NCBI GenBank assembly: GCA_021810455.1
Contig: JAJZIU010000002.1
Location: forward strand, 1 to 59,424
Direction: 5' to 3'
From: Candidatus Micrarchaeota archaeon
GTDB taxonomy: Archaea > Micrarchaeota > Micrarchaeia > Micrarchaeales > CABMGC01
Length of the DNA stretch: 59,424 nt
Shown: positions 4,613 to 54,226 of the stretch, piece by piece
How the letters are laid out: each line of letters starts with the position of its first letter
Numbering within the stretch: the first letter of the stretch is position 1
Notes under the pieces: model-generated
Database searches by the model: none
What the model was told of the DNA's origin: nothing
Seen by the model: the letters and a program-made list of their open reading frames with translations, nothing else
Program-made: the position numbers and the translations under genes

Positions 4613-4640
4613 TATTATATTATAGACAAAAAGAAATAAA

Positions 4641-5991: not shown

Positions 5992-5996
5992 TGTGT

Positions 5997-6833: not shown

Positions 6834-6843
6834 TGGTGCGCTT

Positions 6844-7761: not shown

Positions 7762-7825
7762 ATGACAAAATTTATATATACCAGATGTTTTAAGAATACG
7801 GGAAAGAAGGTAAGGGCAAGATCAG

Positions 7826-8569: not shown

Positions 8570-8579
8570 CGTGTGTTAA

Positions 8580-9626: not shown

Positions 9627-9661
9627 TACCATTTATATATTCTAATATTCTCATTTTTCCC

Positions 9662-12723: not shown

Positions 12724-13137
12724 TTAAATTGATTGTGCCGACTCATCAGATTTGGAGGTCTGCGCATTATACCGTGGTTCTTTGACACAGCGAGCTAAAA
12801 ATACCAAAGAAACCTTTGGTAATGATTTTATAGAAAAATGAAAGGTTTGTTGGATGAAAGAGAAACACAGGCGACTATATGTATGCATAATGCTTATAAT
12901 GGCATTCGTATTATCTAAAATGAGACGATGGTAACGGACTGCGTGTCAGAGGACAGAGGAAAGTCACACTTATGGAGGGAAGTAAAACCCCAACAATAGG
13001 CATTATTCAACTATATGAGAACCGATAACACATTATTTGAAGTTGCGGTGATTGCATGAATGCAGATGAAGCCCATACTATTTGCGTTTGGAAGGATGTT
13101 ACACAATAGATGAAATAATTTATCAAGAGGATTATTT

Positions 13138-14932: not shown

Positions 14933-14975
14933 CTAATCCAATCTTATTATAAATGTTCTCAGATATTTAAGAGTT

Positions 14976-15653: not shown

Positions 15654-16867
15654 TCTTCGAATAGTTTGTACAGTATTTTTGTATCGGCAACCATGTTGTC
15701 TATAATCGCATATTCGTTTGGTTGATGTGCCACGTCATCAACAGTACTCCACGCCACAGCATCCATCCCATTCTGTCTTAGAAATGAAGCGCATGTGCCA
15801 CCACCAATACCAACTTTTATAGGAGCACTTCCCATCGTTTCGGTTATTACTTTTGACAATAGTAAAACTAATTCAGAATCTATTGGGGTTCTGGTTGGTT
15901 TATTGTGAAGTATAGTTTCAATATCTATTTTGGTGTTTTTGGATTCTGAAGCTTCTGCTATTTTTCTAATTTCATGGGCTATTTTATCGAGATCATATCC
16001 AGGTAATATCCTACAATCCATATACGATACATCAGTTCCAGGGGCTATGTTTATGCTGTCGGTGTTTTTTTCATGTTTTGTCATCTCAAACGTGGACACA
16101 TTCGGATCAAACATCTCATCTTTCATGGAATATTTTTCATGAAGATGCTTATCTATTTCGTTTAGCAAGATTATGGCTTTTCTGAATGCGTTTTCCCCTA
16201 GTTCAGGAGTGCTCGCATGTACCTGCTTTCCGTGCACCGTTATTTTCAACCATAACATGCCTTTTTCTGCCACCTCTATTTGATTTCCTTTAGGGCTGCC
16301 GAAATCAGGAACAAGGAATAGATCGTTCTTTTTGAATACCCCTTCTTCGATAAGTTTGCGTATTCCATAAACGCTACCAACCTCTTCATCAGCAACCAAT
16401 GCCAAACCAAAATTATATTTGGATTTTAGCCTTAAATCTTTTGCAAGTTTCAGTGCATACATGGATGATACAACAGCTTGTCCGTTGTCGCATGAGCCCC
16501 TGCCATAAACCTTCCCGTTTTTAACTACAGCAGTGAATGGGTCTGTTCCCCATAATGACATATCTCCTTCGGATACAGTATCTATGTGGGGTATTAGCCA
16601 TAATGTCCTATCCGATACCCCTGATTTAACAACAATGTTTGAACGCAAAAAACCAGAACCATCATCATAATCGTATCTTTTTGTTTTGAATCCCCATTCT
16701 TTAAGGGTTTTTTCCAGGAAATCGGCTCTTTTCGATTCTCCCGTTCCTCCGGAAACCGGAGATACGGATTTTATGCTTATCATTGTGGATAATGTATACA
16801 CCATGTCTTTTCTGTAGGAATCGATCATTTCTTCAGATCTAGAAATATTTTTCACCTTAAAAACCAA
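15650..16867 (-). CDS. M20-family metallopeptidase (ArgE/DapE/ACY1-like deacylase)
   Basis: LIPHIDTV, GRGSCDNGQ, LVADEEVGS, and a C-terminal HQPNEY. Confidence 0.85.
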   Translation of the reverse strand: MVFKVKNISRSEEMIDSYRKDMVYTLSTMISIKSVSPVSGGTGESKRADFLEKTLKEWGFKTKRYDYDDGSGFLRSNIVVKSGVSDRTLWLIPHIDTVSEGDMSLWGTDPFTAVVKNGKVYGRGSCDNGQAVVSSMYALKLAKDLRLKSKYNFGLALVADEEVGSVYGIRKLIEEGVFKKNDLFLVPDFGSPKGNQIEVAEKGMLWLKITVHGKQVHASTPELGENAFRKAIILLNEIDKHLHEKYSMKDEMFDPNVSTFEMTKHEKNTDSINIAPGTDVSYMDCRILPGYDLDKIAHEIRKIAEASESKNTKIDIETILHNKPTRTPIDSELVLLLSKVITETMGSAPIKVGIGGGTCASFLRQNGMDAVAWSTVDDVAHQPNEYAIIDNMVADTKILYKLFED

Positions 16868-16953
16868 TTTACAAATTAATGTTTATTTTTATAGATTTTT
16901 TGTATTGTGCCCAGTATGACTATTATATAAATACGATTACACTACACTTAAAT

Positions 16954-18204
16954 ATGCTAAAATTTGAGAAACAAATAAACGACAATGTACACGGATATAT
17001 AGGCCTAACTTCTGATGAGATAAAAGTAATAGATACAAAAATATTCCAACGGTTAAGGAACATAAAGCAGCTAGGAACAGCAGATCTGGTCTATCCGGGA
17101 GCCACACACACCAGATTTGCGCACTGTCTCGGTACAATGTTCGTACTGGATCAATTCGCAAAGAATACAGTACGTGAAGAGATAGACGATGACGAATTAC
17201 AAAAGTTAAGACTTGCGGCTTTAATGCACGACATAGGGCACTATCCGTTTTCACACGCTTTAGAGCATACAATAGTTAGAGAACTCGAAGGCAAAAATCA
17301 TGTTGAGTTTGGCATGAGTTTAATAAAAAGATTTATGTCAGACAAACTTGAAAGATTCAGTATTAATGAAATAATAGGCATAATGTCTGGGAAAAGAAAG
17401 GATGCTTTCGGCATGCTTATGTCATCAGCCCTTGATGCAGACAAAGCAGATTATATGCTGAGAGATTCATACAACGCAGGGGTTCCTTACGGACACATAG
17501 ACCTGTCTAGTCTGATGCGAATACTTACTTTCGAAAAAAATAGGATAGTTTTTGAAAAAGACGAAACGCCAGTGGAGAGTTTCTTGTTGGGCAGATATCA
17601 CTTGTACAGATCTGTGATTCACCATAAAGTTGTCGTGTCTTTTGGATTGATGCTTCAGAAAATATTCGAACTTCTAGTAAACGAGAATTACATAGAAGAC
17701 CCTAAATCGATCGTAAAGGAAAGTGAAGAAAAGATATCGGGATACACGGACGGTTTGGTGTACATGGCCATGCACGAGTACATACGCAGCGGAAAAAATC
17801 CACTCACTAGGGAATTGATCTTAATGTTTTTGGAGAGAAGGCCATTAGAATTGGCTTATGGGACTGCAGTAACGGCAAATACCGGAGAACCAGAGGAGTA
17901 TTCCTCCATAAAAAGAATGGAATCGAATAAGAGTGCCAAGAAGGTATTCTCCGAGAAAGCGAATGTGGAAAAAGAGTGGGTATTCCCAGTAGTGCTCAGG
18001 ACATTGGGATTGATAGATGAGGAAACGGAGATATACATAAGAAGAGGCAAGGACACAATCCGTTTGATCGATTCCAACGCGTTGGTTATGAAAATGATAG
18101 GAAAAAGAGTTCTGTTTGACGCGAGAATTTATACCAAACCAGGTAGTGGCAAAAAAATTTCAAAAGAATTTAGAAAGGAAAGAGGTTATGTGCATGTACA
18201 TTAG
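16954..18204 (+). CDS. HD-domain phosphohydrolase, SAMHD1/dGTPase-like
   Basis: FQRLRNIKQLG, HTRFAHCLGT, AALMHDIGHYPFSH, DADKADYMLRDSYNAGV. The start is taken at MLKFEKQ (ATG 16954). Confidence 0.8.
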   Translation: MLKFEKQINDNVHGYIGLTSDEIKVIDTKIFQRLRNIKQLGTADLVYPGATHTRFAHCLGTMFVLDQFAKNTVREEIDDDELQKLRLAALMHDIGHYPFSHALEHTIVRELEGKNHVEFGMSLIKRFMSDKLERFSINEIIGIMSGKRKDAFGMLMSSALDADKADYMLRDSYNAGVPYGHIDLSSLMRILTFEKNRIVFEKDETPVESFLLGRYHLYRSVIHHKVVVSFGLMLQKIFELLVNENYIEDPKSIVKESEEKISGYTDGLVYMAMHEYIRSGKNPLTRELILMFLERRPLELAYGTAVTANTGEPEEYSSIKRMESNKSAKKVFSEKANVEKEWVFPVVLRTLGLIDEETEIYIRRGKDTIRLIDSNALVMKMIGKRVLFDARIYTKPGSGKKISKEFRKERGYVHVH

Positions 18205-20032
18205 AGACGCATTTTTAGATATTATAGAAAACGCTATAAGAAACGCATTCGATGGAACGGTAGTGATCGGCAGGAAGGAGATCGATTATTCTGTGCTCTT
18301 TCCAGCAGGAGAACATGCGGATATAAGTTCATCCGTAGCATTCAGAATTGCAAAAATTGTCAAGGATAATCCGAAGAACGTGGCGGATAAGATTATCGAA
18401 TCTGTCAAACCGATAAATCCAATAGTAAAAATGTCAAATCTCAATGGATACATAAATGCACAGTTAGATGAAAAAGAATACTGCAGAATGGTAATTGATG
18501 AAATTGAAAAAAAGAAGGGCAAGTATGGAAATTTGAATTTGGGAAATCTAAAAAAAGTCGTGATAGAGTTCCCAAGTGTAAATCCGAATAAACCATGGCA
18601 TATAGGACACTTAAGATGCGCATTGCTTGGAGATTCAATATCAAACGTGATGGAACATTGCAATTACAAAGTAGAGCGAATGGACTACATAGATGATCTC
18701 GGGCTTCAGATGGCGGAAATACTTTTAGCCATAGGAAATAAAAAAATTGAAAAGAAGTATGATTTGTTTTTAGGGGAAGAGTATGTACGGATAAACACTG
18801 AGATAAGGGAGGGACATTTGGAAAGCAAGGTTTCCGATATTTTGAAAAAAATGGAGGAGACAGAAACTGAGGAAAATAGAAGAGTGAGAGAAATTGCTGA
18901 AAGATGCGTACATGCACAGTACGAAACAGCTTTTGATTATGGGATATACCACGATTCCCTTGTTTTTGAAACAGACGTTGTTAGAGAAGGCTTATTTAAC
19001 ACAGCCATGGATCTGTTGAAAAAGGAAGGTATGGCATCAATAAGAACCGATGGCAATTATAAAGGTTGTTTAGTACTGGGAAGCAAAGAAACTGAAGAAG
19101 GAGAAGGGAAGGTTTTGATAAGAAGCACAGGTGTTCCAACATATATAGGCAAGGATATAGCATTTCATATGTGGAAATTGGGAATTCTAGAAAAGAAATT
19201 CAGATTTAATGAATTTATAAAACAGCCAAATGGAAAGATCGCGTATTCATCATCGCAAAATGGTAGAGAGATGGATTTTGGAGGCTCGGATCTTGCGATA
19301 AACATAATAGGTTCGGCACAGCAACTAAATCAGAAGTTACTGTCAGATTCATTCGAAATACTTGGCAATGGGAGAAAAAGCATAGTGCATCTTGCTTACG
19401 GAGAAGTGAATTTAAAGGAAGGATCGCTTAGCGGTAGGAGTGGCGGATGGATGGGAAGCGGAGCGAACTACACTGCAGATGACTTGTTAAGAGAGACGAC
19501 AACAAGGATAATAGATGTCTCAAGAAAGAACAAAAAACTCGAAGAAGGGAAAATCAACAGCACTTCCAAGAAGGTTGCAGTGGGAGCTATAAGATTTGAA
19601 TACCTTAGAATAGATCCGCTTAAGAAGGTGATATTCGAATGGAGTAGGGCTTTGGATTTGGAATCCAACAGTGGACCATACTGTATGTACATGCACGCAA
19701 GAGCTACAAGCATAATAGAGAAGGCAGGATATACGGAATCCTTGAAGGTTGATGATTACAAGCAGATGACACGCGGCTATGATTTTGAATTGATAAAGCT
19801 ATTGGGAAATGCTGAAGAGATAGTTAGAAAAGCGTGTGTAGAACTTAGGCCAAATGTCATAGCGGAGTATTTGATAGATATCAGTTCGGCTTTCAGCAGA
19901 TTTTATGAAAACATGCCGGTTTTAACAGGGGGAGATGCTATGAGATTAAGGCTTGCAATAGTTATCGCTTCGAAGCAAGTAATAAATAACATGCTTGGTT
20001 TATTAGGTATAGAAACGGTAGAAAAGATGTAA
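18188..20032 (+). CDS. argS: Arginine--tRNA ligase
   Basis: Class I synthetase with PSVNPNKPWHIGHLR (HIGH) and a C-terminal anticodon-binding domain. The start is taken at ATG 18188 (or 18194), overlapping the end of the HD gene. Confidence 0.9.
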   Translation: MCMYIRDAFLDIIENAIRNAFDGTVVIGRKEIDYSVLFPAGEHADISSSVAFRIAKIVKDNPKNVADKIIESVKPINPIVKMSNLNGYINAQLDEKEYCRMVIDEIEKKKGKYGNLNLGNLKKVVIEFPSVNPNKPWHIGHLRCALLGDSISNVMEHCNYKVERMDYIDDLGLQMAEILLAIGNKKIEKKYDLFLGEEYVRINTEIREGHLESKVSDILKKMEETETEENRRVREIAERCVHAQYETAFDYGIYHDSLVFETDVVREGLFNTAMDLLKKEGMASIRTDGNYKGCLVLGSKETEEGEGKVLIRSTGVPTYIGKDIAFHMWKLGILEKKFRFNEFIKQPNGKIAYSSSQNGREMDFGGSDLAINIIGSAQQLNQKLLSDSFEILGNGRKSIVHLAYGEVNLKEGSLSGRSGGWMGSGANYTADDLLRETTTRIIDVSRKNKKLEEGKINSTSKKVAVGAIRFEYLRIDPLKKVIFEWSRALDLESNSGPYCMYMHARATSIIEKAGYTESLKVDDYKQMTRGYDFELIKLLGNAEEIVRKACVELRPNVIAEYLIDISSAFSRFYENMPVLTGGDAMRLRLAIVIASKQVINNMLGLLGIETVEKM

Positions 20033-30430: not shown

Positions 30431-31545
30431 TATGTAAAAACGCCGTTCTAATGTAACATCATACTCGACAAACACCTTTTTATAACATTTCGTGAAGTTT
30501 TATTACTTGTGAGGAGCCACACAACATACATCTATAAGCAGCCTAGGGTGCAGTTCGATTAGTTGTTTTGTTGGGGTGCAGTCAGTTGGGAGACCTCGGC
30601 GGGTCGCGTTTAATAAAGCACTTCCTCATTTCCTCACCTTATAGATTACTTGCCATAGCTCTCGCCGTAGGGTTCACCTCTCGTAAGTATCCAATACATG
30701 ATCTCTACCAATTTTCCTTGCAACTGAGACTATCGCTCTCTGATGGCCTTTCCTGCGCTTCTTCCTAAGGTAAAGTTTCCTGAATCTTCCTGAACACCTG
30801 ATGGCTGCGTTTGCACCCTGGATCAATATGCGGCGCGGTTGTTTGTCTCAGTGTACAAGTCCGCTATCAAATCTTGTTTCTCCAGACTGATATATTCTTG
30901 GTACAAGGCACGCATAACTTGCCAGTTCCTCGTCCGATGCAACTCTGCCGATATAGTCTATGGTAGACACGATATGTACAGCAGAGTAATAACTTATGCC
31001 TGGAATGGTGTCCAGCAACTGCGCCTCTTTTGAGGCGTTGTATATGCCCCTCTTATTTTTACATCGTAGTCCCCAATATGACCTGTCAAAGTTCCTCAGA
31101 TATGTACGAGTCTATTCCCCTCCGTTGGCGGATAGTGTCACGAATTTTCCTAGTCTTTTCTTCTGGAATGTGGCACTGAGGCACAGTCCCCACCCTGCAA
31201 AGATCCGCAAGTTTCTTTGCATCAGTGCGATCTGTCTTCTTTTCTGAGTCATAAATCAGCTTCATCTTCGAAGGATTTGCGACAACAACATCGGCATTTA
31301 CCTCTCTCAGGCAGTCCAACACAAACATCCCATGCGTCGATGCCACCAAGACGAATTTGTTGCGCTTACCTGTCTTTCCGATGAGTTTACCAACGCCCTC
31401 TTTGGAAGTCGGGAACGTCCTATCAAGCCTTACGTTGCCGTTTCGGTCTGTACCAACGCACACAATTTCGTTCTTGCTTATATCAAGTCCTACATACATT
31501 TCAACACCTTTCTACATTATTATCGTATAAAGGCGTTTTTACATA
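30431..31545 (-). mobile_element. Decayed IS110-family insertion sequence (IS1111-like, with inverted repeats)
   Basis: 14-bp perfect inverted repeat TATGTAAAAACGCC (30431-30444) / GGCGTTTTTACATA (31532-31545). It brackets a disrupted DEDD-type transposase gene and ~230 bp of 3' non-coding sequence. Confidence 0.65.
30674..31499 (-). pseudogene. IS110-family (DEDD) transposase, disrupted
   Basis: Intact N-terminal 137 aa (MYVGLDISKNEIV...). There is a frameshift near 31086-31090, and the linker between the RCKNK and LLDTIPGIS motifs is far shorter than usual. An in-frame TGA lies at 30848-30850, followed by ...PRRILIQGANAAIR...RKGHQRAIVSVARKI, a typical IS110 C-terminus. Confidence 0.75.
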
Positions 31546-31552: not shown

Positions 31553-32584
31553 TTGCGTATTTGTGGCCAGAACATAGCAACGCTTTTAAGCATTCTTATC
31601 GTATGGAATGTGGATTCCGTGAATACGTACAGAAGAAAAAGTAGCTCTCTCTCTCTCTCTCTGGGAAGGCGCGACGGCAGATATAGCTTAAGACATTCAG
31701 TCTTTTTTCATCAGCATAAATCTACGTCAAGATCGCAAAGCGCAATGGAATACCTGATGACTTATGGATGGTCTATACTAATAATTGCAGTAGTTCTCGG
31801 CGCACTGTCGTTTCTCGGTGTGTTCAATCCTGTTACGTTTGCACCTAAGGCTGCACCTGGAAGTTGCCAGATTGTAAAGAATTCCGAATTAGGAATAAGC
31901 AACCTTGTAGGAAGCTGCAACAACCAAGTGCCGCAGTATGTCGCATCTCTTAACGGTTCAAGCAGCGACATAGTTATAACTAATCCAAACAGCCTTTCTA
32001 GTGATAATCTTACAGTAACTGCGTGGATTGACCCAACTGCAGCATCTACCGGAGGAGGCATAGCAGGCATTGTTAGCTACGGAAGTGGATGCAGCTCTAA
32101 TACGGCAGCATTAATCATGTGGAATGGATACTTGTATAAAGATGGTTGTGGAGACAATTATAATAGTATGTTAAAACCTAGCGCAAATGTTTGGGAATTT
32201 GTTGCCATGGTCGTAAACAGTACTGATACCCGCCTTTATCTAAATTCAGCTTACAATACATCAAATACTGCAGGTACACCTTACATATCTTCATTGGAGA
32301 TAAACATAGGTTGTGATATAGAACCATTAAGCGGCTGTCAGTCTGGAGATATGTTTGGAGGATACGTTGCCGATGTGCAGATATACAATACATCGCTTAC
32401 AAATTCTTCGGTGCAGGAATTGTATCGTGAAGGGTTAGGCGGATTGCCAATAAACCTTCAGAAACTGGTAAATTGGTACCCGCTGAATGGCAATGCCAAT
32501 GACTATTCCGGAAACCAGAATAACGGAGCGCAGACAAAGGTGGTGTACACAAGCAGTTGGTATGGCGGGTATACACAACCGTGA
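31553..32584 (+). CDS. Class III signal (type IV pilin-like) protein with LamG/concanavalin-like domain, paralog A
   Basis: QSAMEYLMTYGWSILIIAVVLGALSFLG pilin-type N-terminus and LamG hallmarks (LTVTAWI, WEFVAMVV, GGYVADVQIYNTSLTNSSVQELYREG). The only in-frame start upstream of the signal is TTG 31553, which gives an atypical 64-aa leader. ATG 31745 would remove the leader. Confidence 0.7.
   Translation: MRICGQNIATLLSILIVWNVDSVNTYRRKSSSLSLSLGRRDGRYSLRHSVFFHQHKSTSRSQSAMEYLMTYGWSILIIAVVLGALSFLGVFNPVTFAPKAAPGSCQIVKNSELGISNLVGSCNNQVPQYVASLNGSSSDIVITNPNSLSSDNLTVTAWIDPTAASTGGGIAGIVSYGSGCSSNTAALIMWNGYLYKDGCGDNYNSMLKPSANVWEFVAMVVNSTDTRLYLNSAYNTSNTAGTPYISSLEINIGCDIEPLSGCQSGDMFGGYVADVQIYNTSLTNSSVQELYREGLGGLPINLQKLVNWYPLNGNANDYSGNQNNGAQTKVVYTSSWYGGYTQP
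31645..31662 (+). repeat. (CT)9 dinucleotide microsatellite
   Basis: Nine uninterrupted CT units read directly from the sequence. The tract lies inside the only ORF extension that gives the first pilin-like gene a start codon. Confidence 0.95.
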
Positions 32585-32589
32585 TATTT

Positions 32590-35082
32590 ATGAAAACTTT
32601 TTCCAAAAATTTCATCAAAAATCAATCCGAGAAACTCTTTAGAAAAGAGTTTCATCAGAAATCGCAATCCGCAATGGAATACCTGATGACTTATGGATGG
32701 TCGATACTTGTAATCGCCATCATGGTTTCCTTTCTCTACTTCTTCGTTCTTGCACCTTCCAATTTAGTTCCTACTCGATGTACGACAAGCAGTGAACTAA
32801 ACTGCCAGGACATAGTGTTCGGTGCAAACCAACTACTTTCAAAAACAGTATTGTTCCTGACAAATGCGCAATTGCATCCAATCCAGAATCCCTCCATTTC
32901 AATTAATGTGAGCGGGGTCGGAGTCGGGAGTGGAACCTGCACCCCTAATTACGTACTTCCCGGAGGAGCAATAATCTGCAACGTCACCTTTACCAGACCG
33001 TTGCATTATGGGTCTTTAGTAGTGGGAAAAATACTGCTTAGTGGAAATGTATGCACGAATTTGGCAACAGGAGGATGCGCAAGCCCTCAATCACAGACTT
33101 ATCAGGGCAGCTTCAGTGCGCACGTAGTACCGATACTCAGCCAGACTGGACTTAACGTGACAATAATTTCGCAAGGGCCGTTCCTTGCCGACGGAAGTTT
33201 GTACAAGATAACTGCAAAGGTAAAACTCCTCGGTTATCCTCTTTCAGGCGCAACGGTCAACTTCACAAACACGGGCAACTGCGGAGTGATTTCGCAGCAG
33301 TACGCAACAACCGACAGCAACGGCAATGCGACTACGTACGTTTCAAGCACGTCGCAATGCAGCGGATCGATAAACGCAACGTTCGTGGGACACTCGAACA
33401 CCACAAAAGTTACGTTCCTGAAACCGGTTTATGCAACATTCAGCATGAACCAACCAAATACTGGTTACACAGTAGTTACTCTCAGTGGAGTTTCATTCTC
33501 CAACTTGCCAATAAAAATCGCATTTGCTCCAAATTCAACTGCATCATATTCATTCCAGTCAACAGTGCAGGACACGGCAAGTGAAAGGTACGCATTCTCA
33601 TCAGTTGTTAACAATTGCAACGGTGCCAATACGCAGTCAGGATCAATTACAATGACAAACAATTGCAGCGTAGTCGCATCCTACACACTGCAATACTACC
33701 TGACTGCATTTGCATCTCCAAGTAGCGGCGGCAGCGTATCCCCTGCAAGCAACTGGTACAACACGGGCACGCTTGTGCAGGAAAATGCATATGCCACGTC
33801 CAATTATCAGTTCAACAACTGGGCAATCAATCCGACTTCCGCAGGAAGCAGCACCACTTCATCAATAACATTGAACGTTTCAACTCCGGTCAGCGCAGAG
33901 GCAGTGTTCCAAACCACCACATCAACATCCACGAGTACAACCACTTCCACTTCAACATCAACTACAAGTACGACAACATCAACAACCACTTCAACATCTA
34001 CGACCACCTCAACTTCCACTTCCACAAGTACAACAATAACTACACTTACCACATCTTCTACAACAACATCCACAACAACTAGTACAAGCACCAGTACTTC
34101 CACCACAACGATATATTATGCAAACAAGGTAATCGACACTATTGCGGTAGGCAACGACCCAGCTGGAGTGGCATTCAGCCCATCAGGCAACCTTGCATAC
34201 GTTGCGAATGAGGGCAGTTCCACAGTAAGTGTAATCAGCGTAGCTACCAATACAGTCATAGACACTATTACAGTACCTCACGGTGTTTACAGGGTAGCAT
34301 TTAATCCTTCAGGCACACTGGCGTACGTTACGAACAATCAAGATGGTCCGTCTGGAAATACAAGTATAATCAACGTAGGCACTAACACAGTCACTGGAGT
34401 TATTACTTCAAACGTAGGGTGGCCGAATGGGTGGACAGGGGGCGTATATCCGAGTGGCGTGGCATTCAATCCCAATGGCACCACAGCATTCATCGCATAT
34501 CATGGAGTCTGCAACGGTGCGGATCGTGGCAATGAAGTGGTTGGAGTGATCAACGTAGCCACAGATGCAATGATAGGCTATATTTCTGGAAATGGATGTC
34601 CAAACAGCATAGCATTCAGCCCCTCAGGCAACCTTGCATACGTTACGCTTGCTTATGCAGGTGGGGCAGTGGAAGTGCTCGCAATCAGTGGAACCACAGT
34701 TACAAATCCGAACAACATTAACATAGGCACCTATCCTACTGACAGTGTGGCATTTAATCCTTCAGGCACACTGGCATACGTTTCTGATGGTGGCAACGCC
34801 ACAGTAAGTGTAATCAATGTAGCTACCAATACAGTAACGAAAAATATCGGCGTAGGAGTCTCTCCGTACGGCATGGCCTTAAACCCCTCTGGCACACTGG
34901 CATACGTCTCAAACTATGTCAACAACACCGTAACGGTAGTTAATGTAACCACAGGTACAATCACGAACATTGTTGGCGTAGGCACCCAGCCGGGTTTCGT
35001 GGCTATAGATCCAACATATAACATTGCATACGTTACGAATTCCAACAGCAATACGGTGAGTGTGATATCAACGTATCCATAA
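32590..35082 (+). CDS. Class III signal multi-domain adhesin-like protein (Ig-like region, Thr/Ser linker, 7-blade YVTN beta-propeller)
   Basis: Leader MKTFSKNF...FHQKSQ followed by SAMEYLMTYGWSILVIAIMV. Big_1-like segment (ATVNFTNTG...TTDSNGNATTYVSS), an InlB-B-repeat-like segment (GGSVSPASNWYNTGTLV...YQFNNWA) and a 66-aa T/S tract. Seven repeats of the P.GVAF(S/N)PSG(N/T)LAYV.N....V(S/T)VI(N/S)V.T type follow. Confidence 0.75.
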   Translation: MKTFSKNFIKNQSEKLFRKEFHQKSQSAMEYLMTYGWSILVIAIMVSFLYFFVLAPSNLVPTRCTTSSELNCQDIVFGANQLLSKTVLFLTNAQLHPIQNPSISINVSGVGVGSGTCTPNYVLPGGAIICNVTFTRPLHYGSLVVGKILLSGNVCTNLATGGCASPQSQTYQGSFSAHVVPILSQTGLNVTIISQGPFLADGSLYKITAKVKLLGYPLSGATVNFTNTGNCGVISQQYATTDSNGNATTYVSSTSQCSGSINATFVGHSNTTKVTFLKPVYATFSMNQPNTGYTVVTLSGVSFSNLPIKIAFAPNSTASYSFQSTVQDTASERYAFSSVVNNCNGANTQSGSITMTNNCSVVASYTLQYYLTAFASPSSGGSVSPASNWYNTGTLVQENAYATSNYQFNNWAINPTSAGSSTTSSITLNVSTPVSAEAVFQTTTSTSTSTTTSTSTSTTSTTTSTTTSTSTTTSTSTSTSTTITTLTTSSTTTSTTTSTSTSTSTTTIYYANKVIDTIAVGNDPAGVAFSPSGNLAYVANEGSSTVSVISVATNTVIDTITVPHGVYRVAFNPSGTLAYVTNNQDGPSGNTSIINVGTNTVTGVITSNVGWPNGWTGGVYPSGVAFNPNGTTAFIAYHGVCNGADRGNEVVGVINVATDAMIGYISGNGCPNSIAFSPSGNLAYVTLAYAGGAVEVLAISGTTVTNPNNINIGTYPTDSVAFNPSGTLAYVSDGGNATVSVINVATNTVTKNIGVGVSPYGMALNPSGTLAYVSNYVNNTVTVVNVTTGTITNIVGVGTQPGFVAIDPTYNIAYVTNSNSNTVSVISTYP
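33913..34110 (+). repeat. Thr/Ser-rich low-complexity coding tract (ACN/TCN/AGY codon repeats)
   Basis: 66 consecutive codons that are almost all Thr or Ser (TTTSTSTSTTTSTSTSTTSTTT...), lying between the N-terminal domains and the propeller of the adhesin. Confidence 0.9.
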
Positions 35083-35111
35083 TAAGTACAATCACAAACT
35101 CAGGATATATT

Positions 35112-36017
35112 ATGAATAAGTCGCAATCAGCAATGGAATACCTGATGACTTATGGATGGAGTATACTCATTGTTGCAGTGGTATTGGGCGCACTGTCGTT
35201 TCTCGGTGTGTTCAAACCTGTTACGTTTGCGCCCAAAGCTGCACCTGGAAGTTGTCAGATTGTAAAGAATTCCGAATTGGGAATAAGCAACCTTGTAGGA
35301 AGCTGCAACAACCAGGTGCCACAGTATGTTGCATATTTTGATGGCAAAGGAGCATATGCAAATCTTGGAAACAGCCCTACACTTAGTCCCGAAGCAGGTA
35401 CCGAGGGTAAGATGACTTTTTGTATGTGGTATAAAATAAATTCGCTTTCTGGTTATGCAGGCCCGATGCTTAAAGGTGCATATTCTCCAAGCGATGGGAA
35501 TTACTGGGAATATACTCTTGATCAAGGTGGAGGCTCCGAAGGTTTTACTGTGTGGGCTGCAGATGGCGCAACAATCGCATCAGCATCGAGCGATTATTAT
35601 TCATTCAGCTATCTATTAAATCAGTGGGTTTTTGCATGCTTCACCTACGACTACACTGCAGGATCTTCGTATTACTACGTAGGTTATCCAGGGTACTCTG
35701 CACCGATACCTTTCAATTCTCCCGTGTCTGGGATGGCAAGTCAAGGCACTGGATCACTGGTTCTGGGTGCTGGTGAAGGTGGGTATTCAAATGTCAGCAT
35801 ATCTAATGTTCAAATGTATAATACATCATTAAGCAGTTCAGCAATAAATTCCTTATACCAGGAAGGCATTGGAGGAGTACCCATAGATTCGCAGAATTTG
35901 GTAGGCTGGTGGCCGCTGAATGGAAATGCTAACGATTATTCAGGGAACAGTAATGATGGGATCGCCACTAATGTGATATTCACGAGCAATTGGTATGGTG
36001 GATACACGCAACCGTGA
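35112..36017 (+). CDS. Class III signal (pilin-like) LamG-domain protein, paralog C
   Basis: MNKSQ leader plus SAMEYLMTYGWSILIVAVVLGALSFLG. The first ~70 aa are nearly identical to paralog A. The LamG core is divergent (MTFCMWYK, WVFACFTY, ISNVQMYNTSLSSSAINSLYQEG) and the C-terminal WWPLNGNANDYSGN...WYGGYTQP is shared. Confidence 0.8.
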   Translation: MNKSQSAMEYLMTYGWSILIVAVVLGALSFLGVFKPVTFAPKAAPGSCQIVKNSELGISNLVGSCNNQVPQYVAYFDGKGAYANLGNSPTLSPEAGTEGKMTFCMWYKINSLSGYAGPMLKGAYSPSDGNYWEYTLDQGGGSEGFTVWAADGATIASASSDYYSFSYLLNQWVFACFTYDYTAGSSYYYVGYPGYSAPIPFNSPVSGMASQGTGSLVLGAGEGGYSNVSISNVQMYNTSLSSSAINSLYQEGIGGVPIDSQNLVGWWPLNGNANDYSGNSNDGIATNVIFTSNWYGGYTQP

Positions 36018-36021
36018 TAGA

Positions 36022-36885
36022 ATGAAATCGCAAAGTGCAATGGAGTATTTGATGACCTATGGATGGTCGATACTCATTATCGCAGTAGTGCTCGGTGCGC
36101 TTTCATTTCTCGGTATATTCAATCCTTTGACATTTGCACCTAAGGCAACTGCCGGCAATTGCCAAGTGATAAGGAACGGTGAACTTGGAATAAGCAATCT
36201 GGAAGGTAGTTGCAACAACCAAGTGCCGCAGTATGTCGCACGATTCATAGGTTATAACAACATCCCGACAACAGATGCGCAGAAACTGACTTCATTTACA
36301 ATGTTGGACTGGTTTTATGATAACTCTGGAAACCAGCTCGGAAGTGTGCAGCAATCGAAATGTGGAGTGACAGTAGGACCTGCATGGAGCTGGTGTAGCG
36401 GAGGATGGGCTTGTTTCGATCCATGCTCATGCTACCTAAGCTCGACAGGACAGGCAATAGGATGCAATGGCTATGCACAGGTAAGTGGATTGCCAAATAC
36501 GTGGAATATGGTGGCTGTGAGCGTTGCGGTGAATGGCACCGTTTTTATGTACGACTTTGTAAATGGAAAGGAGTACTCGAATTCATATTCTTTCGGACAA
36601 GGAATATACGCATCTTCGGGAAGCGTGAATATTGGAGATTGGCCCGGATGGTTGTTTGATGGTATGGTTTCTAATGTGCAGATATACAATACCTCACTGA
36701 GTAATGTTGCGATAGAAGCCATGTACAACGAAGGCATAGGAGGAGCTCCAGTAGATTTACAGAATCTCGTAGGATGGTGGCCACTGAATGGGAACGTTAA
36801 TGATTATTCAAATAGTGGTAATTCAGGAATGACTGAAAATCTGACATTTACAAGCAGTTGGTATGGTGGATACACGCAACCGTGA
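36022..36885 (+). CDS. Class III signal (pilin-like) LamG-domain protein, paralog D (Cys-rich core)
   Basis: MKSQ leader plus SAMEYLMTYGWSILIIAVVLGALSFLG. The core is divergent and Cys-rich (CGVTVGPAWSWCSGGWACFDPCSCY). MVSNVQIYNTSLSNVAIEAMYNEG and the WWPLNGNVNDYS...WYGGYTQP C-terminus are present. Confidence 0.8.
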   Translation: MKSQSAMEYLMTYGWSILIIAVVLGALSFLGIFNPLTFAPKATAGNCQVIRNGELGISNLEGSCNNQVPQYVARFIGYNNIPTTDAQKLTSFTMLDWFYDNSGNQLGSVQQSKCGVTVGPAWSWCSGGWACFDPCSCYLSSTGQAIGCNGYAQVSGLPNTWNMVAVSVAVNGTVFMYDFVNGKEYSNSYSFGQGIYASSGSVNIGDWPGWLFDGMVSNVQIYNTSLSNVAIEAMYNEGIGGAPVDLQNLVGWWPLNGNVNDYSNSGNSGMTENLTFTSSWYGGYTQP

Positions 36886-36889
36886 TAGA

Positions 36890-38080
36890 ATGAGACGCAT
36901 TGGCATAGTAATCTGGATGGCATTTTTAACGTGTATTTTCCTTTTTATTTGTCAGAGGCATCTGAATGCCACAGTAATACATGTGCCTCAAGTAAATGTA
37001 TCATTAAACAGTTCCATTTCAAATGTCACGGAAGGGATTATAATACCGCTGTATTTTTACCCAAATCAGGAATGGGCTAAGCTCGAAAATTATACTCCGG
37101 GATTATATGCAGTGATAATCAATCCGGACAGCGGACCAGGTACGAATTTCGATCCTGTTTACAATAAATGGATAAATGATTTGCGTAGTAGCGGAATAGA
37201 GGTTTTAGGATACGTGCCGACGTTCTTCAATGATGGTACATTGACACTGAATGAAGATGAAGGATACATAAATGATTATTATAAGTGGTATAATGTAAGT
37301 GGAATATTCTTAGATCAGGTTGCTTCGAATTGCAATGAATCCAACATAAAGTTTTACGGAACCCTTTACAATTACATAAAAGGAAATCAAATCGCAGGAA
37401 ATATGGTGTTTATGGATCCTGGTGTTGGTGTCGGCCAATGTTACAGGAATATCTCAGATATAATAAACATATTTGAAAACAATTATTCGGTTTTTGTTAA
37501 AGAAAATATGACGTATGTGAAAACAAGTTCGTATAACCCAAACCATTTATCAATGATAGTGTATGATGTACCAAACAGTACAAACATGAAACACGTAATA
37601 AACATTTCAAGGAATTTAGGGATAGGTTACGTGTTTATAACAAATAGATCAGGAAGTAATCCGTTTGATTCATTGCCTGAATATATAAAGAATGAAACCG
37701 ATTCGGTAAATCCGATCAGAGTTTCATTATACAAACAAGAATCTGATAATAACGGAAATCTTACAATAACTTTGAAATTTAAAGCTACAGGAGGCAATGG
37801 AGGATACTCGTTTTTATTTGGCAGATTACCAGCATTCTGTGATGTGTTTAATGAATCACAGATTGAGTGCACTCCTAAAGAAGCAGGTAACTTTACAATT
37901 TTAATGAAAGTTAACGATAGCTTAGGATTCGAAAGGGATTTTTATTATAGTGTAAATATGACAGAGGCAAAAATCAAAAACACGTATTGGACCACATATG
38001 ATACGGGATACGTACTTTTTTTAATCATAATGATCATCGTGATAAGTTACTTTGTGAGATTTAGGATTAAACACAAATAA
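36890..38080 (+). CDS. Membrane-anchored spherulin-4 family (Sph3/GH135-like) protein with C-terminal Ig-like domain
   Basis: N-terminal signal/TM, then IIIPLYFYPNQEWAKL...AVIINPDSGPG...GIEVLGYVPTFF, which matches my recollection of the spherulation-specific family 4 signature. GGNGGYSF Ig-like segment and a C-terminal TM plus basic tail. The start sits in the same 35-nt junction sequence as paralog D. Confidence 0.6.
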   Translation: MRRIGIVIWMAFLTCIFLFICQRHLNATVIHVPQVNVSLNSSISNVTEGIIIPLYFYPNQEWAKLENYTPGLYAVIINPDSGPGTNFDPVYNKWINDLRSSGIEVLGYVPTFFNDGTLTLNEDEGYINDYYKWYNVSGIFLDQVASNCNESNIKFYGTLYNYIKGNQIAGNMVFMDPGVGVGQCYRNISDIINIFENNYSVFVKENMTYVKTSSYNPNHLSMIVYDVPNSTNMKHVINISRNLGIGYVFITNRSGSNPFDSLPEYIKNETDSVNPIRVSLYKQESDNNGNLTITLKFKATGGNGGYSFLFGRLPAFCDVFNESQIECTPKEAGNFTILMKVNDSLGFERDFYYSVNMTEAKIKNTYWTTYDTGYVLFLIIMIIVISYFVRFRIKHK

Positions 38081-52561: not shown

Positions 52562-54226
52562 GTGAAGACTATTAAGAAAACAAAAAACGGGAAAAAGAAC
52601 AGCAATCCATACGTTTTGATAGTTGCAGTGTTGCTTTTTGCAATAGTGATTAACGCTGCGGTTTACGCGTTTTCGCATATTGAAGGTCCGAGTACCTATG
52701 GAGATGATGCAAATTATTTGTGGTTGGCAAATTCCGTTGACAATGGGAGTTTCCTCATAAATCCAGGTTACATATTTTCAGTAAGGCTAATGCAGTTTAT
52801 GCCTATCGCCTTATTTTACAAGATCTTCGGATTTACGCTTGTAGGAGCAACGTTTTGGGACATTATGGCATACATTGGCGGTATATTAGTAACATTCATG
52901 ATTGGAAAATTTATTTACGGTTATAAAGAAGCGCTTTTAGGTGCATTTTTGTTTAGCATATTCCCGGTTGTTACAAAATTTGCAGTGAACACAGGGGAAG
53001 ATGTACCGCTAACATTTGTCTCAGGGTTGACGATTTTGATGTTTCTGTACGGTGAAAGATTCCAGGGTTTAAAAGGCAGAATACCTTATCTTGTTAGTGG
53101 GATTTTACTTGTTGTTGCATGGCTTATAGGTTATGAAGCAGGGATAATAATTGCGTTTGTGTTGTTATACGGCTTTATTGAATTGTTTAGAAGGAAGATT
53201 ATTATTGATGGAAAGGCCTTGTTCTTCGTTTATGGAATTATACTTGCATTTGTAGTTACCTTCGTGTTTAGTTACCTGAATTCGCATCTTGCTTTTGCCA
53301 CAATAACCGTGAATAATAGGTTTTATAGTGCGATAGGATCTAAGGTAAATAACTTACCGACCATACCTACTGCTAACCAGAATCTTGACTTTTACTTAGA
53401 GGGCATGTTCCCTTACGGAATTGTAAATATTCTTCTGCATGGTGGAGGCTTAGGCAACGCAGTACACACAGTTTATAATGAAGTACTGACATTGCCAGCG
53501 AATGATAGTGATTTCGGAGTATACTTCTATCTTTTCGTTATATTTGCAATTGTCCTACTACTGTATAGAGACAGGAGTTCGTATTTTTTCCTTGCATGGT
53601 TTGGTGTGGCATTTGCACTCCTAGAGTTCGGACCGATGCATGTTGGATTAGGTTTGAACCCCATACACGTAACATACATACTTGCGCATAGATTGAGAAG
53701 ATTCTTGATGATACTTGCCATACCGTTGGTTCTTGTTGTTTCTAGAGGAATGTTTGCGCTAATAAAGCCAAAAAACAGGTATTTCAGATTTGTAGGTTTC
53801 GCTGTGTTCTTGACATTGATAGTTTTCATATATCTCACAAGTTCACTGCTTACTAATTTCTGGTATTATTTGCAAGAACAACAGAATGGCAGCACTCTGG
53901 CCGCTGGTACATACATCAGAAGCCTGGGAAGTAATGTCACAGTTTATGTGGAGGATATGCAGGGGCCCATAATAACAGCACAGGGGTCAGATTTTCCAGC
54001 TTTTGCAGGAAGACCACAGAGTCAGAACATAGTGAATGTTAATAGTACCGAACTTTGTTCGGCTTATAACCCAGGCAGTTACGTCGTGTGGAATGGTACG
54101 AAAGAATGTAGCAATTGGATAAATGTATATAATATAAGTGTAACAAATCTTAATCAAAAAACAATAAATGAAATCGGATGGTATCAGATACCTTATAGTC
54201 CTACTAATGTCTATAGAGTTGGGTAG
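52562..54226 (+). CDS. GT-C fold glycosyltransferase (ArnT/PMT_2-like, polyprenyl-phosphate-sugar dependent)
   Basis: 554 aa with more than 10 predicted TM helices. Acidic motif YGDDANYLW in the first external loop, and a soluble C-terminal domain. No WWDYG, so it is not AglB. GTG start. Confidence 0.6.
   Translation: MKTIKKTKNGKKNSNPYVLIVAVLLFAIVINAAVYAFSHIEGPSTYGDDANYLWLANSVDNGSFLINPGYIFSVRLMQFMPIALFYKIFGFTLVGATFWDIMAYIGGILVTFMIGKFIYGYKEALLGAFLFSIFPVVTKFAVNTGEDVPLTFVSGLTILMFLYGERFQGLKGRIPYLVSGILLVVAWLIGYEAGIIIAFVLLYGFIELFRRKIIIDGKALFFVYGIILAFVVTFVFSYLNSHLAFATITVNNRFYSAIGSKVNNLPTIPTANQNLDFYLEGMFPYGIVNILLHGGGLGNAVHTVYNEVLTLPANDSDFGVYFYLFVIFAIVLLLYRDRSSYFFLAWFGVAFALLEFGPMHVGLGLNPIHVTYILAHRLRRFLMILAIPLVLVVSRGMFALIKPKNRYFRFVGFAVFLTLIVFIYLTSSLLTNFWYYLQEQQNGSTLAAGTYIRSLGSNVTVYVEDMQGPIITAQGSDFPAFAGRPQSQNIVNVNSTELCSAYNPGSYVVWNGTKECSNWINVYNISVTNLNQKTINEIGWYQIPYSPTNVYRVG

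Follow-up and report, generated by a model that had tools for sequence, protein, structure and literature searches.

A Micrarchaeota gene block joining LamG-headed, pilin-like proteins to a predicted Spherulin-4/GH135-like enzyme

Little is known of how DPANN archaea recognise their hosts and stay attached to them, and none of the adhesins of Micrarchaeota has been characterised. In the sections of the 'Ca. Mancarchaeum acidiphilum' Mia14 paper considered here (Golyshina et al. 2017, PMC5498576), LamG-like proteins are described as expanded in Micrarchaeota and DPANN archaea, with a proposed role in host interaction; part of the LamG set lies on genomic islands and is associated with type IV pilus loci, and the Mia14 genome encodes two such pilus systems, a single FlaK-like peptidase and beta-propeller (YVTN/PKD) surface proteins. 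None of the Mia14 LamG-like jellyroll proteins has been characterised.

The Sulfolobus bindosome consists of sugar-binding proteins with class III signals, which are assembled by a pilus-like system. Methanococcus EpdE has Gln at +1 and Glu at +5 (QxAME). FlaFind-type rules demand Gly or Ala at -1, and Ser, Asn or Leu at this position is unusual for prepilin peptidases. The Epd-type or 'system 1' pili of Methanococcales and DPANN archaea comprise many pilin types and large DUF2341 (concanavalin-clan) putative adhesins with class III signals (Makarova et al. 2016, PMC4858521; bioRxiv 10.64898/2026.04.22.720090). S. sanguinis PilC, the product of a single gene in the pil locus, combines a class III signal and an N-terminal helix with a lectin module of concanavalin type; the module binds glycans of the host and is displayed on the type IV filament as an adhesin (2023, PMC9934059). 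Aspergillus Sph3 (GH135) is a membrane-bound hydrolase with an N-terminal anchor that acts on GalNAc-rich galactosaminogalactan (PMC12054363) and is encoded in a five-gene biosynthetic cluster with a synthase, an epimerase, a deacetylase and a GH114 enzyme.

The window analysed here is a 59,424-nt (59-kb) stretch of contig JAJZIU010000002.1, and the organism is a tiny, host-dependent Micrarchaeota (DPANN) archaeon; homologs of its proteins carry the names Candidatus Micrarchaeota or Micrarchaeaceae. A sequence-only reading of the window had described five co-directional genes separated by 4-29 nt next to a dead IS, with no pilus ATPase, platform protein or prepilin peptidase in the window, and each of these points holds. 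The ORFs of g1 to g5 have the coordinates claimed, with gaps of 5, 29, 4 and 4 nt when the start codons of that reading are used, and the block is flanked by the atp and suf operons. The degraded IS110-family transposase gene alongside it (30560..31499, minus strand), recognised by Pfam annotation and three-frame translation, retains an intact N-terminal DEDD_Tnp_IS110 ORF (31086-31499), and its C-terminal Transposase_20-like part is in a different frame with an internal stop. Pfam family searches found no match to T2SSE/FlaI, TadC/FlaJ or Peptidase_A24 in any gene of the 59-kb window. The five genes do not form a conserved unit.

Three of the genes encode LamG-headed, pilin-like proteins, in agreement with the earlier assignment of LamG/concanavalin-type domains: g1 (31745..32584, plus strand; 279 aa from the ATG; Laminin_G_3 E=1.8e-15), g3 (35112..36017, plus strand; 301 aa; E=1.9e-10) and g4 (36022..36885, plus strand; 287 aa; E=1.4e-5). 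With g1 at 57.8 bits and g3 at 41.5 bits, both exceed the 27.6-bit gathering cut-off of Pfam PF13385 (Laminin_G_3), and g4 lies slightly under it at 25.8 bits; g4 is clearly homologous, as its whole length can be aligned with g1, g3 and the LamG-pilin family. In g3, the leader MNKS is followed by the QSAMEYLMTYGW helix and then, after a linker that contains a conserved Cys pair, by the LamG jellyroll; in g4 the leader MKS precedes QSAMEYLMTYGW. Consistently, the AlphaFold2 model of g3 (pLDDT 83, pTM 0.81) consists of a helix at residues 4-30 and a confident LamG-like jellyroll, with a low-confidence linker of ~40 residues containing the Cys pair between them and no separate pilin head. Among PDB entries, Foldseek places the PAPP-A LamG domain, pentraxins and BoNT Hc highest (E from 3e-8 to 1e-6 against PAPP-A LamG, pentraxins and a Bacteroides carbohydrate-binding protein), and an identity of 12-18% is too low to transfer binding-site residues. 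A class III signal, an N-terminal helix and a concanavalin-type lectin module are common to PilC and, by prediction, to the LamG pilins; PilC is bacterial, and no homology between them was detected. In PilC the lectin has been added to a complete pilin module; the LamG-pilin jellyroll comes after the helix and linker, and the LamG pilins form a family of dozens scattered round the genome rather than a single gene in a pil locus.

The 5' end of g1 differs from those of g3 and g4. From the TTG at 31553 to the ATG at 31745 there is no ATG, GTG or TTG, and translation from the ATG begins at MEYLMTYGW and lacks a leader. Upstream of QSAMEY, in-frame leader-like codons (HKSTSRS, 31715-31735) are present, again with no start codon. 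The gene may have lost its 5' end, may be silent, or may be translated with no leader at all. Over the first 72 codons g1 and g3 differ by dS=0.34, and the remainder is saturated. This N-terminal mosaic shows, as read from these divergences, recombination among paralogs with at least one recent 5' exchange.

The sequence-only reading had given g1 to g4 a short basic leader followed by a hydrophobic helix and had taken this to be an archaeal class III signal. The helix and the motif are present in all four proteins, but the leader of g2 is 27 aa long and that of g1 has no start codon. In a six-frame scan of the 59-kb window, QSAMEYLMTYGWSIL occurs four times, always inside the g1-g4 part of the block. 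The residues before the presumed cleavage site are ...HQKS in g2, MNKS in g3 and MKS in g4, with Lys at -2 and Ser at -1, and a hydrophobic helix predicted to be ~27 residues long begins straight after the site, with Glu at +5. In 105 of 120 LamG homologs QSAMEYLMTYGW is nearly invariant after a leader of 3-44 aa; among these 105 family members -2 is mostly Lys or Arg, and -1 is Ser in 42, Ala in 22, Asn in 12 and Leu in 11. In QSAME(+5)YLMTYGWSILIVAVVLGALSFLGVF, the Q, E, Y, T, Y and W residues are invariant in 88 sequences. The same N-terminus is joined to LamG, Big_1/propeller, DUF2341 and Kelch cargo across Micrarchaeota and is also found on a pilin-sized ORF of ~160 aa (locus L096). The class III, type IV pilin-like reading of these N-termini is therefore well supported by sequence logic.

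Two features depart from a textbook class III signal. The -1 residue is Ser in g1 to g4 instead of Gly or Ala, which is often seen at -1 in the g2 family, and a search of the first 63-67 residues of g3 and g2 with PF04021 (Class_IIIsignal/DUF361) finds no match with a threshold as loose as E<=10. These proteins share Gln at +1 and Glu at +5 with the Epd-type pilins, and the Micrarchaeota DUF2341 proteins have the same N-terminus as g1 to g4; unlike the system 1 proteins, g1 to g4 have Ser rather than Gly at -1, no PF04021/DUF361 match (g2 and g3 tested) and a position outside a pilus locus. An improbable alternative is that the N-terminus is an uncleaved signal-anchor (a type II membrane anchor) or a tag for another sorting route, with each protein standing alone as a spike in the membrane or S-layer instead of joining a filament. 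The missing PF04021 match, the Ser, Asn or Leu at -1 in many members and the lack of pilus machinery in the 59-kb window and beside the LamG genes examined, including family members on the long contigs P0007, P0101, P0028 and P0246, would all suit such an anchor. So would signs that the leader may be dispensable: it has lost its start in g1 and, through an ATG-to-ATA change, in the LamG paralog of locus L095, and ~12% of database gene calls for LamG homologs begin at MEYL or MTYGW. However, Gln(+1), Glu(+5) and the first ~15 residues are near-invariant over unrelated cargo, a hallmark of subunits with a shared peptidase and a common helical core and not expected of a simple membrane anchor, and the leader varies freely in length and sequence up to exactly Gln(+1). 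Genes for type IV pilus systems and for a FlaK-like peptidase in published Micrarchaeota genomes, as described in the sections of PMC5498576 considered here, also argue against an uncleaved anchor.

The LamG proteins of the block belong to a large Micrarchaeota family of at least 2468 clusters, the genes of which are mostly scattered singletons among housekeeping genes, as is one DUF2341 member. When 1.84 billion representatives were searched exhaustively with a profile of the LamG-pilin family, 213,133 matches were returned, a count that is swamped by generic multi-LamG giant proteins and is uninformative on the size of the pilin-like subfamily. A scan of viral contigs with the LamG-pilin alignment found no viral copies, only short matches to a generic C-terminal LamG motif. 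The conserved C-terminal tail WPLNGNANDYSGN was considered as a special donor strand or a sign of circular permutation, and this idea was dropped because the tail is the usual inter-repeat lead-in of LamG_3 arrays. The locus is mostly another instance of the LamG expansion already published for Micrarchaeota, being of the same phylum and domain family as the Mia14 proteins. The earlier remark that no characterised archaeal system of this composition was known went too far, as the expansion, a host role and a partial pilus linkage are described in the sections of PMC5498576 considered here. Unlike the present analysis, those sections describe no invariant class-III-type N-terminus, no layout of conserved ends around a variable middle and no link to Spherulin-4/GH135.

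The second gene, g2 (32590..35082, plus strand), encodes a predicted class-III-signal adhesin of 830 aa, as characterised by TIGR02276, Pfam and DNA repeat analysis. Its N-terminus (32590-32760) consists of the 27-aa basic leader and the QSAMEYLMTYGWSIL helix, followed by a Big_1 Ig-like domain (~33181-33417), InlB B-repeat domains up to ~33885, a Ser/Thr-rich linker (~33920-34105) and a YVTN beta-propeller (~34114-35079). The TIGR02276 YVTN repeat scores 120 bits against a cut-off of 27.85 bits (E=2.9e-35) in four separately scored stretches, and the DNA repeat families D4 and D6 have a spacing of 126 nt. The multi-domain YVTN adhesin of ~830 aa that had been read from the ORF is thus borne out, with the Big_1 and InlB-repeat domains in addition. 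Modular pilins of the S. sanguinis PilB/PilC type combine a complete pilin module, made of a helix and a globular pilin head, with an added functional module; g2 has several grafted modules. Its family comprises 83 proteins; the source names are all Micrarchaeota but one (Marsarchaeota), and most matches are unnamed. A paralog of g2 with 81% identity lies elsewhere in the same genome and has no LamG or Spherulin-4 partner.

The last gene, g5 (36890..38080, plus strand), encodes a membrane-anchored Spherulin-4/GH135-like protein of 396 aa, as the sequence-only reading had proposed. It scores 132 bits on Pfam PF12138 (Spherulin4; E=3.2e-38; cut-off 30.2 bits) over profile positions 2-237 of 239, and it consists of an N-terminal hydrophobic signal or anchor, a (beta/alpha)8 barrel (~37037-37702), an Ig-like beta-sandwich (~37718-37960) and a C-terminal TM helix with a basic tail (~38003-38074). 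Sequence comparison with the Sph3 structures (PDB 5c5g/5d6t) gives E~1e-8, and the AlphaFold2 model of g5 (pLDDT 82) has 5d6t and 5c5g as its top Foldseek matches (E=6e-14, target TM-score 0.77-0.78, rmsd 2.8-3.4 A). The Sph3 catalytic residues were taken from PMC12054363, which prints Asp196/Glu222, together with the alignment offset, which points to Asp166/Glu222. By alignment, the conserved GH135 motifs GIF(F/L)D and (F/Y)E(N/D) contain the Sph3 nucleophile Asp and acid/base Glu; Asp142 of g5 (GIFLD) aligns with the Asp of Sph3 GIFFD and Glu196 (IFEN) with the Glu of Sph3 VFEA. Asp142 is invariant in 38 homologs, and Glu196 is invariant in the three Micrarchaeota enzymes and replaced by Asp in one distant homolog (P0134). 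The position after the catalytic Asp is Gln in g5, Met in two close relatives and Glu in the wider family, including Sph3, where Glu167 matters for function. Judging from the alignment and the model, g5 is probably a retaining endo-alpha-1,4-N-acetylgalactosaminidase-like hydrolase. It shares the Pfam family, the (beta/alpha)8 fold, the catalytic Asp/Glu pair and membrane anchoring with Sph3 and differs in having a C-terminal anchor and an extra Ig-like domain; none of the other four components of the Sph3 cluster is found at the g5 block.

A scan of genome contigs with a 9-sequence Spherulin-4 alignment identified the enzyme in two other Micrarchaeota species, with 43-44% identity to g5 and directly followed by two to three co-directional LamG-pilin genes. 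The enzyme gene thus adjoins co-directional LamG-pilin genes in all three Micrarchaeota species found to have it, at two genomic sites and in two gene orders, since the locus in the other two species reads EF-2/Sph4-LamG-LamG(-LamG)/LigT. The spacer between the two gene types is 4 nt in the g1-g5 block and ~34-45 nt in the other species. Of 80 Spherulin-4 loci retrieved, the 78 from outside Micrarchaeota all lack a LamG-pilin neighbour, and a scan of metagenome contigs for more Micrarchaeota-type loci gave one distant locus among the matches listed. Because background LamG density is low (with the anchor genes set aside, ~148 kb of flanking Micrarchaeota DNA holds ~3 extra copies, or ~1 per 50 kb), LamG-GH135 adjacency at two independent sites is unlikely by chance (below 1% by a rough estimate). 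Among the papers searched, none covers both GH135 and Micrarchaeota, and the link of LamG pilins to a GH135-type enzyme appears to be unreported. The pairing does not extend to g2. Nor does it reflect an ancestral Sph4-LamG block: in the other species, the LamG genes next to the enzyme come from different sub-lineages and are neither orthologs nor the closest relatives of g1, g3 or g4, and no such block has been preserved.

These data bear on whether the genes were merely gathered together. In that case, fast-evolving, multi-copy surface-protein genes would have accumulated at a recombination-prone spot next to an IS remnant, each protein acting alone and the enzyme having no coupling to the LamG proteins. 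The dispersal of most LamG-pilin genes and of the DUF2341 member, the partnerless g2 paralog in the same MAG, the differing LamG sub-lineages beside the enzyme, the g1/g3 mosaic, and the dead IS110 and a (CT)9 tract flanking the block would all fit such gathering. In contrast, the adjacency in 3/3 species at two loci and in two orders, the short spacers and the sparse LamG background speak for a real association, and chance gathering is unlikely. If the pairing were coincidental all the same, the locus would be one more example of the known LamG expansion.

The preferred interpretation, to which we give an even chance, is that the block is an accessory cell-surface module in which adhesins with class III signals are displayed by pilus machinery encoded elsewhere and act together with an ecto-hydrolase that cuts the Gal/GalNAc-rich matrix of a host or biofilm. 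Processing of the signal, incorporation into filaments, binding of glycans, the substrate of the enzyme, co-transcription and functional coupling are all predicted parts of this interpretation. In this scheme g2, g3 and g4, and g1 if expressed, would be made with a class III, type IV pilin-like signal, to be cleaved between the basic leader (Lys or Arg at -2) and Gln(+1) by a prepilin peptidase from another part of the genome. The mature N-terminus, QSAME(+5)YLMTYGW..., would contribute its helix of ~27 residues to the core of a type IV filament or anchor the protein in the membrane, so displaying a LamG (lectin-type) jellyroll, which is variable, or the YVTN propeller of g2 on its stalk of Ig repeats. 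The lectin heads may bind glycans of the host or biofilm matrix, and g5, as a type I membrane-anchored ecto-enzyme of GH135 (Sph3) type, may locally cut the Gal/GalNAc-rich matrix, so that the tiny cell could gain access to the surface of its host or reshape it. In a cultured Micrarchaeon, Gal/GalNAc/Man lectins stain the matrix of the Thermoplasmatales host, and the signal of one Gal/GalNAc lectin is lost in co-culture (PMC8975820). Points against this interpretation are the lack of pilus machinery in the window and beside the LamG genes examined, the missing PF04021 match, the residues at -1, the leader of g1 that has no start codon, the Gln after the catalytic Asp of g5, the different LamG lineages beside the enzyme in the other species and the place of g2 outside the recurring pairing. 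The attachment module of lectin-headed pilins and an EPS-active enzyme proposed earlier thus stands in part: the domains are as described and the LamG-GH135 pairing recurs, but the five genes do not form a unit, the g2 paralog has no partners and LamG genes are mostly scattered. The locus offers expressible candidates, namely three lectin-type heads on a pilin-like stalk, an Ig/propeller adhesin and an ecto-glycosidase with a nearest characterised relative that cuts a GalNAc-rich exopolysaccharide, and the repeated pairing raises a "bind, then cut" hypothesis for existing co-cultures.

Glycan foraging of a bindosome- or Sus-like kind, in which the LamG proteins capture polysaccharide and the anchored GH135-like enzyme frees oligosaccharides for uptake by a metabolically limited cell, has a distinctly low probability. 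The Sulfolobus bindosome, a system mentioned in PMC4858521, would be its precedent, as a class III signal there displays non-pilin, carbohydrate-binding-type cargo at the archaeal surface, which is also predicted for g1 to g4. An ecto-glycosidase beside carbohydrate-binding-type folds, the TCA-cycle enzymes on the contig and the soil Thaumarchaeota GH135 genes read as serving polysaccharide degradation for carbon (PMC10640624) would agree with foraging. However, bindosome cargo comprises ABC-transporter substrate-binding proteins encoded with transporters, whereas LamG and propeller domains are found here, and in none of the three species does the block or the DNA next to it contain a sugar transporter or a downstream catabolic gene. 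The hypervariable LamG heads, with 19-26% identity in the central region, better fit diverse surfaces than a single nutrient, and the Ig stalk and propeller of g2 have the architecture of an adhesin.

The LamG-pilin genes have near-identical 5' ends and conserved 3' ends around hypervariable lectin cores, and some copies have no leader start codon (g1 and the L095 paralog). A bolder extension of the adhesin interpretation, which we regard as a long shot, is that the family forms a recombining repertoire of interchangeable adhesin heads, in which expressed and silent cassettes would exchange sequence by gene conversion and so change the host or glycan that is recognised, much as in Neisseria pilE/pilS, with the GH135 ecto-hydrolase co-inherited to breach a GalNAc-rich Thermoplasmatales host matrix. 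If true, this would be the first pilin-variation system in archaea and would open the host range of DPANN archaea to molecular study.

The (CT)9 dinucleotide repeat (31645..31662, plus strand) lies between the IS remnant and g1 within a long TTG-initiated ORF. Phase variation via this tract was considered, and there is no sign of it, as the tract length is identical in all five other same-species contigs holding the repeat. The contig also has TCA-cycle enzyme genes. Recent horizontal acquisition of g1-g5 is unsupported by composition, as GC3 of the block (0.33-0.45) overlaps that of the flanks (0.32-0.42). The IS110 remnant has a GC3 of 0.51 against 0.32-0.45 in the neighbouring genes, and the overall GC of g1-g5 is raised via codon position 2, that is, by amino-acid composition.

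The five surface-protein genes lie on the + strand between 31.5 and 38.1 kb when the most sensible start codons are chosen, namely g1 (31745-32584), g2 (32590-35082), g3 (35112-36017), g4 (36022-36885) and g5 (36890-38080). They are separated by intergenic gaps of only 5, 29, 4 and 4 nt, in agreement with the co-directional and tightly packed arrangement described by the sequence-only reading. The A-type ATPase genes are located upstream of the block, the last of them being atpD, which ends at 30051, and the stop of the convergent sufS gene is 1 nt from the g5 stop codon. An IS110-family transposase gene on the minus strand between atpD and g1 retains an intact ORF for its DEDD N-terminal domain (31086-31499), and its C-terminal domain is out of frame and interrupted by a stop, confirming the degraded IS that had been placed beside the block. 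The exact g3 protein is found on 13 contigs, drawn from a number of MAGs and metagenome assemblies, and the synteny is identical in all of them.

The surface-gene block is a real feature that was correctly annotated at the outset, and its domain calls are all borne out. Laminin_G_3 is matched by g1 (1.8e-15), by g3 (1.9e-10) and, below threshold, by g4 (25.8 bits against 27.6); g2 matches the YVTN repeat TIGR02276 (2.9e-35) and g5 matches Spherulin4 (3.2e-38). Piecewise scanning of g2 reveals a Big_1 Ig-like domain and InlB B-repeat domains, followed by a Ser/Thr-rich linker and then the propeller. The g1, g3 and g4 proteins align with one another over their full length, with conserved stretches of ~75 residues at either end and an identity of only 19-26% in the middle region. 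An AlphaFold2 model of g3 built on an 88-sequence alignment (pLDDT 83, pTM 0.81) places a helix at the N-terminus (residues 4-30), then a linker of lower confidence that contains an invariant Cys pair, and finally a confidently predicted jellyroll. The best PDB matches of the model are the PAPP-A LamG-like domain, pentraxins, Hc domains of botulinum toxin and a carbohydrate-binding protein from Bacteroides. In profile searches, the LamG-pilin profile also picks up giant proteins, 4000-7600 aa in length and containing as many as 29 LamG repeats, as well as a group of ~1100-aa proteins in which 4-5 repeats are present. The C-terminal tail conserved among g1, g3 and g4 has its counterpart in the inter-repeat lead-in of these arrays.

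In the g5 model (pLDDT 82), a hydrophobic helix at the N-terminus is followed by a (beta/alpha)8 barrel, then by an Ig-like sandwich and, at the C-terminus, by a transmembrane helix; the top structural matches of the model are Aspergillus clavatus Sph3 structures (5d6t and 5c5g; E=6e-14, target TM-score 0.78). Sequence alignment places Asp142 (GIFLD) and Glu196 (IFEN) of g5 at the positions of the Sph3 nucleophile and acid/base residues (PMC12054363), respectively. Asp142 is kept in all 38 homologs, and Glu196 does not vary among the three Micrarchaeota enzymes; one distant homolog has Asp at this position. Directly after the catalytic Asp, g5 has Gln and its closest relatives have Met, at a position that Glu occupies in most of the family. 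Profile, modelled fold and predicted catalytic residues make g5 a true member of the Spherulin-4/GH135 family, whose fungal member Sph3 has a gene context entirely unlike that of g5.

The named homologs of g3 and g2 belong to Candidatus Micrarchaeota/Micrarchaeaceae, with single exceptions in Acidoferrales and Marsarchaeota, which places the source organism among the DPANN archaea. A search of a 90%-clustered database at E<=1e-3 yields at least 2468 relatives of g3. On three further Micrarchaeota contigs, LamG-pilin genes are singletons amid genes such as those for ribosomal proteins, tRNA synthetases and FtsZ, and one to three copies are present per 21 kb around the anchor gene. A g2 paralog with 81% identity over the N-terminal two-thirds is encoded on another contig of the same MAG (GCA_027334405.1, contig DAHWXB010000022.1), and neither a LamG nor a Spherulin-4 gene was found beside it; the five-gene block is not a conserved unit. 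At positions 1-19126 of that contig, the paralog adjoins eight co-directional genes (274-573 aa) that lack Pfam matches, and an IS605 OrfB/TnpB gene, an 817-aa protein without a Pfam match and a GT4 glycosyltransferase are also present, so that the region may be another surface or mobile island.

The g5 protein has only 43 detectable relatives in an indexed search, and a scan of 185,579 species genomes finds its subfamily in only two other Micrarchaeota, whose enzymes share 42-44% identity with g5 and have the same Ig-like domain and C-terminal anchor. In both of these species, two or three co-directional LamG-pilin genes directly follow the enzyme gene. The locus differs from that in the window, being flanked by EF-2 and a LigT-like gene, and the gene order is reversed. 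Of the 80 Spherulin-4 loci fetched, the 78 outside Micrarchaeota (Thaumarchaeota, Chloroflexota, Actinomycetota and others) have no LamG-pilin ORF within 10 kb. In the other two species, the LamG genes adjoining the enzyme gene are not those most closely related to g1, g3 or g4, and therefore the recurrent adjacency does not represent an ancestral block kept intact. A chance grouping of fast-evolving surface genes beside an IS would be in keeping with the IS110 remnant; since ~148 kb of Micrarchaeota sequence, anchor genes set aside, contains only about three further LamG-pilin genes, the probability of chance adjacency at two independent loci is roughly <1% by a crude estimate, and coincidence is unlikely. 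The linkage of LamG-pilins to a GH135 enzyme thus appears real, with moderate support from gene neighbourhoods.

The QSAMEYLMTYGWSIL form of Q...E[YF] plus a hydrophobic run occurs only four times in the six frames of the 59-kb window, each time where one of g1-g4 begins. In 105 of 120 LamG relatives, there is hardly any variation from the Gln on (QSAMEYLMTYGW[AS]IL...), and the leader before the Gln is 3-44 aa long and freely variable in length and sequence, except for K/R at -2. A helix of ~27 residues is predicted. The same N-terminus is carried by unrelated cargo, namely LamG, Big_1/propeller, DUF2341 and Kelch proteins. Methanococcus Epd pilins start with QxAME, which Gln(+1) and Glu(+5) of the g1-g4 family mirror; this resemblance extends to the 'system 1' pilins, whose pili are reported in methanogens and DPANN together with DUF2341 adhesins. 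In another Micrarchaeon (locus L096, 18551-20023), a LamG-pilin gene is directly preceded by a pilin-sized ORF of ~160 aa (MMKS followed by QSALEYLTMYGWAII...), a candidate major pilin with the same N-terminus. This pattern would fit subunits sharing one common peptidase and one helical assembly core. The archaeal class III signal proposed by the sequence-only reading is upheld in part: the near-invariant sequence from Gln, the K/R at -2 and the helix length agree with it; against it, the N-termini of g2 and g3 do not match PF04021 even at E<=10, and g1-g4 have Ser at -1. The -1 residue is often Gly or Ala in the g2 family and is Asn or Leu in about a fifth of relatives. An uncleaved signal-anchor without a filament would accord with the PF04021 result; a plain membrane anchor is not expected to give the observed N-terminal pattern, which makes this explanation improbable, and 'class-III-type, pilin-like' is the best, as yet unproven, reading. 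As had been noted, a pilus ATPase, platform protein or peptidase is not encoded in the window, and none was found near any inspected family member, which also counts against the class III reading. The 27-aa leader of g2 (32590-32670) is MKTFSKNFIKN-QSEKLFRKEFHQKS, the start of which resembles the complete leader of other members (MKTFEKSFIKN before QSAMEY), and a similar long leader is found on P0009, a LamG protein, so that leaders appear to be shuffled between cargo types.

No ATG, GTG or TTG is present between TTG 31553 and ATG 31745 upstream of g1. In-frame leader-like codons (...FHQHKSTSRS) precede QSAMEY in g1 and resemble the long '...KEFHQKS' leaders of g2 and some relatives, and because they have no start codon, the native 5' end of g1 seems to have been lost, beside the IS remnant and a (CT)9 dinucleotide repeat (31645-31662). 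This tract sits within the sole ORF able to supply a g1 leader, and its length does not change in the 5 further contigs of this species in which it is present. Two LamG-pilin paralogs of another Micrarchaeon (locus L095, 9908-10861 and 18647-19786) have the common leader (M/I)ARASNPSAA..RKLRS; one of them has ATA in place of the ATG that would start the leader, and its gene call accordingly begins at MEYLM. For the family as a whole, about 12% of the gene calls in databases begin within the mature N-terminus (at MEYL or MTYGW). The first 72 codons of g1 and g3 (31733-31950 and 35121-35340) differ by dS=0.34, whereas their middle and 3' parts are saturated (dS>3), and therefore the two paralogs have swapped 5' ends fairly recently, by exchange or gene conversion. 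Lost leader starts and 5' exchange leave room for a cassette-type variation mechanism without establishing one.

LamG-like jellyroll proteins have been described by Golyshina et al. (2017; PMC5498576) as expanded in Mia14, a Micrarchaeon in culture, and across DPANN as a whole, with a proposed role in host interaction and with some of them linked to type IV pilus loci and located on a genomic island; the same paper describes an expansion of YVTN/PKD propeller surface proteins and a Mia14 genome with two type IV pilus systems and one FlaK-like peptidase. Therefore, the general idea is not new, the earlier claim of no characterised archaeal counterpart is too strong, and most of the block is a further instance of a known, uncharacterised surface-protein expansion, which is also its closest parallel by homology. 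[quoted passage not shown] What is new is the recurrent coupling of LamG-pilins to a predicted GH135-type ecto-enzyme, the documentation of a family-wide class-III-like N-terminus with unusual -1 residues, and the signs of 5' exchange together with copies lacking a start codon.

The architecture, the modelled folds, the conserved catalytic pair and the recurrent adjacency are directly supported, and the mechanism proposed for the block is inferred: the adhesins would be processed between K/R-x and Q by the prepilin peptidase of the genome and displayed on or by type IV filament machinery encoded elsewhere, or at least anchored by their helices. The variable LamG heads and the g2 propeller may bind surface or matrix glycans, and g5, in the same membrane, may cut an alpha-linked Gal/GalNAc-type polymer. 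The matrix and surface of the Thermoplasmatales host of a cultured Micrarchaeon stain with galactose-, GalNAc- and mannose-specific lectins, and one Gal/GalNAc lectin signal is gone in the co-culture (PMC8975820). Together with the specificity of GH135 Sph3 for GalNAc-rich galactosaminogalactan, the host staining makes binding and then cutting of the host matrix a concrete, testable idea, for which the lectin data, coming from a different species, are circumstantial. A bindosome- or Sus-like foraging role would likewise join glycan binding to cleavage; a transporter is absent nearby, and this role seems rather doubtful.

Elsewhere in the window, a 211-aa ORF (3651-4286, +) of this DPANN archaeon has a strong GGDEF diguanylate-cyclase domain (Pfam E=5.4e-31); c-di-GMP signalling is not known to be established in archaea. 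A PMT_2-family glycosyltransferase (554 aa) abuts a 529-aa protein without a Pfam match (52562-55816, +) and a GT2 gene is located at 14976-15653, a possible protein glycosylation capacity unlinked to the block.
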